Source: an uncultured Chloroflexia bacterium (lineage in GTDB: Bacteria > Chloroflexota > Limnocylindria > Limnocylindrales > CSP1-4). From it: a DNA stretch of 64,000 nucleotides. The notes under the pieces were generated by a model, which was not told where the DNA came from, made no database searches, and worked only from the letters and a program-made list of their open reading frames with translations. The stretch spans positions 119 to 64,118 of the forward strand of contig CAWDUR010000033.1 of NCBI GenBank assembly GCA_963805585.1, written 5' to 3'. Positions 2,130 through 3,582 of the stretch are shown piece after piece. The position numbers were made by a program, and so were the translations under genes. Within the stretch, counting starts at the first letter, position 1. Every line of letters starts with the position of its first letter.

Positions 2130-3582
2130 CTGAATGTCGATCCGGACCAGCAGCGACCGCCGCTGAGCAGCGGCACGGCACGCGGCGCGGACGAAGGTCC
2201 AGCCCCGGGAGAGGATGCCGCGTCCACCAGGCCGCGACCCGACCACGATCAAGAGCGGCGTGCCTTCTTCCGCCAGTTCGGCCGGCAGGCCCTGGTCACG
2301 GTCGGCCAGGTGGCCGGCGTGGCCGACATGGTCAGGGGCATCCCGGGTTCGGCCGCGGCCGGCCTGCTCGGTCTCGGAGAGCCCACCACCGGACGGCCGG
2401 CACAGAGCGCGGGTGGAGCAGGTCAGCGCGGCGCAGCTCTCATCACGTCGTCGGCAGCATCCACGGACGATGTCTTCCGCAGCGCGTACCGCGTCTCGGG
2501 CGATGAGCTCCTGATCCTCGACCAGCGCGGCATCCCGGACCGGCTCGCCAACGTGGTTGCTCGGAGGGGCAGCGACGTGGCCTACTACCTGCGCCTCGGC
2601 GCTTGCCGGGGCGGTGCGCTGATGGCCCAGGTGGCCGCCTACGGACTGGCCATGACGGCCGCGGAGCGCGCCACGCAGCCCGCCGTGGCTCGCGATGCGG
2701 AGCTGCGACGGACCGAGCAGGCCCTCGCCTCGGCACGTCCATCGCTCGCGCCTGCCGGTCTGGGCGATGGAGCGCATGGAGGCAGCTCGGTCGCGCTTGG
2801 ATGTCGCGGCGGAAGGGGCCGCGGTCGCGGCTGCGCTGCGGGCCGAAGCCAACGCCATCGCCGCGGACGTGCAAGCGGCTCAGGCGGCCATCGCGGCCGC
2901 GCTCCACGGCTGGCTCGAGGGCCTGGACACCGATCGCACGGACCGCCCTCTCGGCGTGCTCGTGCACGGTGACCCCGGCGCCCTCGGCGGTGGCCTCCTG
3001 GGCCCAGGCCTCACGGCCCTGCGCGCCGTTCGGGACGGAGGTCGGGAGCTGCGGGTCTTCGTGACCGAGACTCGTCCCTTCATGGACGGGGCCCGCCTGG
3101 CCGCCTGGGAGCTGCGCCAGGCCGGCATCGACCACAAGGTCATCCCTGACTCCGCGGCCGCCTGGCTCTTCGATCGGGAGCGCATCGATGTCGTGCTCAT
3201 CGACGCCGAATGGATCGCCGCCAACGGTGACACGGGGGCCGTCATCGGCAGCCGCGCCATCGCCCTGCAGGCCGCCGCCATGCCTGGCGTCCCGGAGCGC
3301 ACCCGGCCCCTGGTCATCGTCACCGGCCTCAGCCAGGCGATCGACCTTGCCACGCGAGACGGCGACGCCATCCCGGTGGAGCTGCGTCCCGCCCGCGATC
3401 AGGCGGCCTTCCTGACCGGCCTCTCCATCCGAGTCGCGGACGCGCTCGTGCCCGCCAGCGACGTCATGCCGGCCGACACCATCGCGGCGCTCGTGACGGA
3501 CCGCGGTGTGCTCGCACGGCCGTCGACCGCCGCCATCGCCTCGATCGTCGATGTCCCACGCGGCCCGGAGGCGGACGGCTGA
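2130..3582 (+). CDS. MtnA/eIF-2B-family protein with degenerate active site (start uncertain, 2130-2310; apparent frameshift near 2750)
   Basis: LILDQR, CRGG..AAYGLA, ETRPFMDGARLAAWEL, IAANGDT and DGDAIPVELR align with methylthioribose-1-phosphate isomerase. HCN is replaced by HGD and GADRI by DAEWI. Confidence 0.8.

Follow-up and report, generated by a model that had tools for sequence, protein, structure and literature searches.

Metabolic-enzyme pseudoenzymes are well known in eukaryotes, and well-resolved bacterial cases are less familiar. In Bacillus subtilis MtnA (M1Pi), the isomerase that acts on 5-methylthioribose 1-phosphate (MTR-1-P) in methionine salvage, the catalytic pair is Cys160 and Asp240. 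In the related ribose-1,5-bisphosphate (R15P) isomerase the substitutions C135S, C135A, and D204N abolish isomerization, and eIF2B-alpha has Ala or Gly at the position of the catalytic Cys (PMC5789824). The eIF2B subunits alpha, beta, and delta, together with aIF2B, have been retained as ligand- and protein-binding regulators (PMC4787765; PMC8187479). A further case is the S-adenosylmethionine decarboxylase (AdoMetDC) prozyme of trypanosomes, a dead paralogue that activates an enzyme of S-adenosylmethionine (SAM) and polyamine metabolism (PMC6221367). Here we analyze an MtnA-like gene near the start of a 64,000-nucleotide stretch of DNA, hereafter the window, from an uncultured Chloroflexia bacterium of the Limnocylindrales. 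The gene sits between apt and a GNAT acetyltransferase gene in a block of SAM-cycle genes (Table 1). Judging from comparisons across its relatives, we think it probable that it encodes a pseudo-isomerase, descended from an MtnA with an N-terminal RRxFF extension and kept for a non-catalytic role.

The encoded protein has the same fold and domain order as MtnA (2YVK, 1T9K; TIGR00512/NF004326), which provides its best matches in both sequence and structure. The MtnA/IF-2B fold named in an original prediction, made from the DNA letters, is clearly recognizable: PF01008 matches with an E-value of 6e-30, and the best matches in the PDB are the enzymes of T. maritima (1t9k) and B. subtilis (2yvk), with E-values for MtnA entries of 1.6e-34 to 7e-17 and for eIF2B regulatory subunits of 2e-5 or weaker. 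The motifs LDQxxLP, RG(A/G), RP(T/S), ExRP, and NGD are shared with MtnA, as are many structural residues. An AlphaFold2 (AF2) model of an orthologue that is 80% identical (P0002) was compared by Foldseek with 1t9k, 2yvk, and 2yrf, giving target-normalized TM-scores of 0.80-0.89, and its pLDDT exceeds 90 across most of residues 110-470. According to this model, the MtnA fold is intact in the putative pseudo-isomerase.

The protein departs from MtnA in four respects: its catalytic and binding residues are replaced, its profile scores fall below cut-off, it carries the RRxFF extension, and near relatives have no maker or consumer of MTR-1-P. All four motif changes that the original prediction had quoted (HGDPG, MDG, DAEWI, and GAVIGS) are present where it placed them, with DAEWI for GADRI at 3202-3216 and NGDTGAVIGSR at 3223-3255, where MtnA has ANKIGT. 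We mapped residues by alignment to the solved structures 1t9k (T. maritima) and 2yrf/2yvk (B. subtilis). Three residues that bind the sugar and phosphate, each conserved at 100% across 49 canonical MtnA representatives, are replaced: Gln199 by Asp, Asn250 by Ala, and Lys251 by Val. At the position of Asp240 the window has Glu, which keeps the acid on a longer side chain. The two parts into which the gene is divided in this assembly (see below) score 33 and 158.7 bits against an NCBIfam MtnA cut-off of 271; for P0002, an orthologue in one intact frame, the scores are 206.6 (cut-off 271) and 197.6 (cut-off 279), and all 40 members tested fall under every NCBIfam MtnA cut-off. JGI nevertheless labels the degenerate proteins 'methylthioribose-1-phosphate isomerase', a name that would wrongly credit uncultured soil Limnocylindrales with a step of methionine salvage.

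The substitutions are a property of the family. A word-indexed search returned 263 homologues at E<=1e-10, and we read conservation from the best 120 of these, which are 50-88% identical, form single open reading frames (ORFs), and are mostly 350-535 aa long. Gly stands for Cys160 in 120/120 of them, so that this change is not private to the assembly. At position 240, 107 of them have Glu and 13 have Asp. His279-Gly280 and Gly283 do not vary, 319 carries an acidic residue in every sequence, 360 holds either Glu or Asp, and Trp361 and Arg375 are each found in 95%.

We then read motifs from a search of 1.84 billion cluster representatives and built a tree of 133 rows. The sequences with the RRxFF extension form a clade, hereafter the RR clade, of 82/133 rows with an SH-aLRT (Shimodaira-Hasegawa-like approximate likelihood-ratio test) support of 100. 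At its base lie members with a fully canonical site (P0138, P0141, P0142, and P0145), which read THCNTG, LQG, GADR, ANK, and GTY. Nested within the clade is a group of 72 clusters, including that of the window (SH-aLRT 97). None of its members retains the Cys, and 92% have Gly instead. Thirty positions that are at least 85% conserved in the 49 canonical representatives fall below 60% in this group, among them the equivalents of Arg51, Thr96, Asn161, Gln199, Asp240, Arg241, Asn250, Lys251, Thr254, Glu290, and Phe317. The sole conserved residue specific to the degenerate proteins is the Gly at 160, and the clade-wide conservation analysis recovered no new conserved catalytic set across the 72 clusters. 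As read from these alignments, the pattern is that of a decayed active site and not a new one. The original prediction had offered an enzyme with altered chemistry as a second possibility, which the lack of a new catalytic set disfavors.

These relationships also place the protein with respect to eIF2B. Like the eIF2B regulatory subunits, it appears to be a non-catalytic descendant of the same isomerase family that lost the catalytic Cys and kept the fold. Unlike eIF2B and aIF2B, it nests within bacterial MtnA in the tree and has no eIF2-like partner; because of this nesting, its loss of the Cys would be independent of, and parallel to, that in eIF2B. The likeness to the AdoMetDC prozyme is one of analogy only, both being dead relatives of SAM-linked enzymes that are kept under selection. 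What would be new is a clade-level PF01008 pseudoenzyme in bacteria; its kind is known from the eIF2B regulatory subunits. Our literature searches found no papers on the RR-extended MtnA clade or on methionine salvage in Limnocylindria.

Sister genera show what the ancestral protein may have looked like. In a sample of 401 genomes from the phylum, searched with a match threshold of E<=1e-30, the RRxFF extension is confined to the window's GTDB family, in the Limnocylindrales. A canonical site is found in 10/10 loci of genera g4, g5, g8, g10, and g12 (loci L086-L095), and a degenerate site in genera g1 (that of the window), g3, g7, g9, g11, and g13. The canonical sister proteins share with the window protein the RRxFF extension, the clade, and, where it was read, the slot between apt and the GNAT gene: in the canonical loci read (L082-L085), apt precedes three and a GNAT gene follows two. 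They differ from it in keeping THCNTG, LQG, GADR, ANK, and GTY, and in their company, as MTA phosphorylase (MTAP) is found over its cut-off in 9/10 of their genomes.

The degenerate forms keep different company. Genomes that carry a degenerate form together with MTAP or MtnK also have a second, ordinary MtnA, typically beside MtnB/MtnK; in those distant congeners of the window's genome that possess a second canonical MtnA, it is adjacent to MtnB or MtnK. The original prediction had suggested looking for a canonical mtnA elsewhere in the genome, and one is carried by some distant congeners and by none of the window's nearest relatives: no second gene of the IF-2B family was found in 11 nearest-relative genomes (orthologue 55-73% identical, up to 91% complete). 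Likewise, neither the window's genome (60% complete) nor the near relatives searched contain MTAP, MtnK, or MtnB over cut-off. Most near relatives have MtnN, a nucleosidase for 5'-methylthioadenosine (MTA) and S-adenosylhomocysteine. In the window's lineage MTA should therefore yield adenine, recycled by Apt, and unphosphorylated methylthioribose, which leaves nothing for MtnA to isomerize. The distribution of the Gly, the canonical sisters, and the missing suppliers of MTR-1-P together lend good support to the original prediction's central claim, a catalytically dead MtnA/eIF2B-like protein in a SAM-cycle block.

The only match to the MTAP model in the window's genome is a weak one, far under the MTAP cut-off, to a PunA-type purine nucleoside phosphorylase at 60297-61223 (PNP_UDP_1, 163 bits).

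The position of the gene next to apt echoes the logic of the MtnA pathway, in which MTA gives adenine and MTR-1-P. A pattern scan with one genome per species found 49 loci, 48 of them in Limnocylindrales/Chloroflexota with the order apt, MtnA-like gene, GNAT, ahcY. The 49th, from Actinomadura pelletieri DSM 43383 (L076, 5863-7488), is a 541-codon frame that joins a canonical MtnA to a C-terminal Apt. This fusion lends support to a connection in function between MtnA and the salvage of adenine.

Loss of the active site has not been followed by loss of constraint. We estimated dN/dS for the MtnA-like gene at 0.19-0.25, compared with 0.06-0.10 for its neighbors (apt, ahcY, and a 242-aa gene; apt itself 0.06-0.08). 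By this measure, with dN/dS at about 0.2, the gene is still under purifying selection.

We next consider how the lines of evidence combine. The ancestral RR-extended MtnA may already have had another job besides catalysis, one linked to the RRxFF helix. Selection would have maintained nothing but this job after either the arrival of a second canonical MtnA or the loss of salvage. The present protein would then most likely be a dimeric module with a binding or regulatory role, directed at a metabolite or at an operon partner in adenine/SAM recycling, and not an isomerase; the remaining pocket in the window's sub-clade may still bind a ligand. More tentatively, and we regard this as a possibility with the odds against it, the locus might be a bacterial replay of the origin of the eIF2B regulatory subunits, in which a second function borne by the RRxFF helix was freed from catalysis by a second MtnA or by loss of salvage, and the protein is now devoted to regulating the apt/GNAT/ahcY/metK operon by binding a metabolite or a protein.

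Several observations weigh against these proposals. Within the window's sub-clade the remodeled pocket is among the best-conserved parts of the protein, with His279, the acidic residues at 319 and 360, Trp361, Arg375, and the Arg51 and Arg94 equivalents conserved at 95-100%; such conservation could point to a particular ligand, or even to another reaction. Glu is able to stand in for Asp as a base. Genus g6, which gave no match at the threshold used and lacks the MtnA-like gene from its slot in the 3 loci read, and family f3 of the same class have the apt-GNAT-ahcY(-metK) block without an MtnA-like gene, and in one locus of family f2 apt and the GNAT gene lie 1.2 kb apart with no adjoining ahcY and no MtnA-like gene. 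Since g6 has lost the gene, its role must be dispensable in some lineages. Finally, the source genome, of which the window is contig C33, is a bin of 2.18 Mb in 33 contigs and 60% complete, so that absences there rest on the relatives.

The same distribution bears on what the protein might regulate. The original prediction had proposed regulation of the GNAT or of AhcY, and this is weakened because g6 and f3 have apt-GNAT-ahcY but no MtnA-like gene. The GNAT occurs without it in g6, f3, and the f2 locus, which indicates that the GNAT is older and independent; we therefore rejected the GNAT as an obligate partner.

The rival that best survives is that the MtnA-like protein is still an enzyme, using another catalytic pair, such as Glu360 and Asp319, on MTR-1-P, 5-deoxyribose-1-phosphate, ribose-1-phosphate, or a related by-product of SAM. 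The intact fold would suit this idea, as would the near-invariance in the window's sub-clade of the Arg51 and Arg94 equivalents and of two acidic residues, and in the nearest relatives no further protein of the IF-2B family is present to do the work. Its place beside apt would also suit recycling of MTA or 5'-deoxyadenosine, as would the MtnA-Apt fusion. We nonetheless think it unlikely. The change of Cys to Gly is universal in the clade, and Cys to Ser or Ala suffices to kill the homologous R15P isomerase (PMC5789824). The sugar-contacting Asn250 and Lys251 are gone, and pocket residues vary freely across the 72-cluster clade, with no new conserved set. Near relatives are without the MTAP or MtnK that would supply a 1-phosphosugar, and a separate canonical MtnA is present wherever salvage exists.

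A second rival is that the copy in the source genome is a genuine, recently inactivated pseudogene. The original prediction treated 2130-3582 as one reading frame and passed over both a break in it and the absence of a canonical start; the interval is 1453 nt long, and two frames meet at 2744/2746. The N-terminal part comprises a leader rich in Pro, Ala, and acidic residues, the RRxFF helix, a linker, and the MtnA N-domain as far as ...ASARPS, and positions 103-352 of the NCBIfam MtnA profile match the second frame from about 2758. The orthologues P0001-P0004 run continuously across the region, as ARPSSRLP(V/A/T)WAM. We aligned the DNA to two close relatives, L022 (protein 80% identical) and L023 (88% identical, a short-read assembly), and found one extra base in the window at 2745: CCATCGCTCG, compared with CCATC-GTCG in L022 and CCATC-CTCG in L023. 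The base falls in a Ser codon, for which L022 has TCG and L023 has TCC, and it looks as if both alleles had been merged into the consensus.

The genes on either side are broken in the same way. In xdhC (XdhC_CoxI and XdhC_C, 373-1544), 373-861 lies in frame 1 and 783-1475 in frame 3, with a break near 800; the gene is a single 380-aa ORF in L035, and in L033 and L037 its two halves are in frame with each other. The GNAT gene is divided by one extra base, at 3798, into 3582-3797 (frame 3) and 3799-4452 (frame 1). Both genes are unsplit in relatives, and both breaks lie within ~3 kb of 2745. The collinear relative L022 has single-base indels of its own in ahcY and metK (13470, 14794, and 15605), with inflated gene calls (480 and 407 aa), and split genes occur in many sister bins of the long-contig 'MFD' series. 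Downstream of the break, dN/dS of the MtnA-like gene is 0.20-0.25, compared with 0.24-0.28 for pairs of intact orthologues. This evidence rests on local comparison with relatives; counting frameshifts across the genome by GC3 (third-codon-position GC) periodicity was set aside as unreliable at 72% GC.

Because xdhC and the GNAT gene are broken alike, the orthologues are intact, and dN/dS is unchanged past the break, the break at 2745 most likely reflects an error in the consensus of a long-read assembly and not a true inactivation. A pseudogene would explain the visible +1 break and the gene call in the public record, a 271-aa fragment (P0008), and the complete loss of the gene in g6 shows that loss does occur. 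Against it are the matching single-base breaks nearby, the fact that L022 is broken in ahcY and metK instead, the synonymous TCG/TCC site at which the extra base falls, and a dN/dS equal to that of intact pairs. We give a real frameshift only a slim chance and, as selection is not relaxed and the neighbors are broken likewise, consider a decaying pseudogene unlikely despite the disruption. Programmed frameshifting at 2745 was rejected too, as every orthologue is in a single frame. Assemblies of the series to which L022 belongs call for frameshift-aware annotation.

The start of the gene is also unusual. No ATG, GTG, or TTG is found in frame between the upstream stop at 1917 and position 2310, and position 2130 is a CTG. 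The Shine-Dalgarno-like GGGAG lies 9 nt ahead of this CTG, and both are kept in L022 and L023. A canonical start is likewise missing in two short-read assemblies, L023 and L038, and the CTG of the window at 2163 corresponds to a GTG in L022. The MtnA-like gene may thus use a CTG start, or be translated by re-initiation after the apt stop.

The N-terminal extension is roughly 110 residues long and is also present in the catalytically canonical sister proteins. The original prediction had picked out RRAFFRQFGRQ in it, and we find this at 2256-2288. RRAFF is invariant in the 91/91 sequences, among the best 120 homologues, that cover the N-terminus, and all 7/7 nucleotide differences from L022 in the RRAFF segment are synonymous, which argues that the extension is translated. 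Pfam has no domain in the N-terminal 205 residues, and the AF2 model of P0002 has a helix at residues 30-58. We infer that the RRxFF helix arose before catalysis was lost and that no other element is as well conserved throughout the RR clade.

Twin arginines raise the question of whether the extension is a twin-arginine translocation (Tat) signal or a membrane anchor, which would place the protein outside the cytoplasm or at the membrane. RRAFF fits the core of such signals, the next 12-13 residues are uncharged and lead to a basic one, and TatC is present in 14/15 other genomes searched from the genus. Yet none of 40 members matches a TAT_signal hidden Markov model at E<=1 (Pfam, NCBIfam), the would-be h-region has only 12-13 residues, and real Tat signals of this genome, such as DRRTFLKLMGISGAGLLATG, do not resemble it. 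Many orthologues have 30-75 acidic, Pro-rich residues ahead of the RR; the canonical sisters, whose metabolite is cytoplasmic, carry the extension too, and their version of this region contains Asp or Glu. The partners encoded in the operon are cytoplasmic as well. Export of the MtnA-like protein through Tat thus seems unlikely from its sequence, and we give this reading, anchor included, little weight.

The preferred reading, a pseudo-isomerase retained for a non-catalytic role, gains interest from the series that survives in sister genera. A single operon slot holds an active enzyme, a degenerate protein with a backup enzyme, a degenerate protein alone, or a deletion, and this series lets one ask what keeps a dead enzyme alive.

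Table 1. Features of the MtnA-like gene and its neighbors, in window coordinates; residue numbers in substitutions are those of B. subtilis MtnA.
Feature	Position	Strand	Remarks
MtnA-like gene, N-terminal part	2130..2744	+	frame pos%3=0; NCBIfam MtnA profile positions 10-97 = residues 115-204
MtnA-like gene, C-terminal part with former active site	2746..3582	+	frame pos%3=1; PF01008, 104.9 bits
HGDPG (vs HCNAG)	2965..2979	+	Cys160 -> Gly, Asn161 -> Asp
ETRPFMDG (vs LQG)	3067..3090	+	Gln199 -> Asp
DAEWIAANGDTGAVIGSR	3202..3255	+	Asp240 -> Glu, Arg241 -> Trp, Asn250 -> Ala, Lys251 -> Val, Tyr255 -> Arg
Conserved N-terminal element RRAFFRQFGRQALVTVGQVAGVADMVRG	2256..2340	+	predicted amphipathic helix
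GGGAG Shine-Dalgarno-like site and in-frame CTG (2130-2132)	2116..2132	+	GGGAG at 2116-2120; only plausible start
apt (adenine phosphoribosyltransferase)	1594..2115	+	PF00156; upstream of MtnA-like gene in 48/48 Limnocylindrales loci
Two-domain GNAT acetyltransferase	3582..4455	+	290 aa in relatives; translationally coupled on both sides; split here at 3798
ahcY (S-adenosylhomocysteine hydrolase)	4452..5786	+	profile match; conserved synteny
metK (SAM synthetase), last gene of conserved block	6771..7958	+	canonical MetK translation; synteny

On the plus strand, the first 8 kb of the window read xdhC, apt, MtnA-like gene, GNAT, ahcY, and metK, with a 242-aa gene on the opposite strand ahead of metK. 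The tight junctions noted in the original prediction are as it described them: the last base of the MtnA-like gene's TGA (3580-3582) is the first of the GNAT ATG (3582-3584), and the GNAT stop and ahcY start share an ATGA at 4452-4455. The acetyl-CoA motif Q/RxxGxA of the GNAT is intact (RGQGLA, 4213-4230).

As an intact 290-aa protein, the GNAT is a fixed part of the apt-GNAT-ahcY(-metK) block class-wide. The 242-aa protein (5848-6576, minus strand) has no Pfam or NCBIfam match; it lies beside ahcY in most loci of the family, and its dN/dS of 0.08 indicates strong purifying selection.

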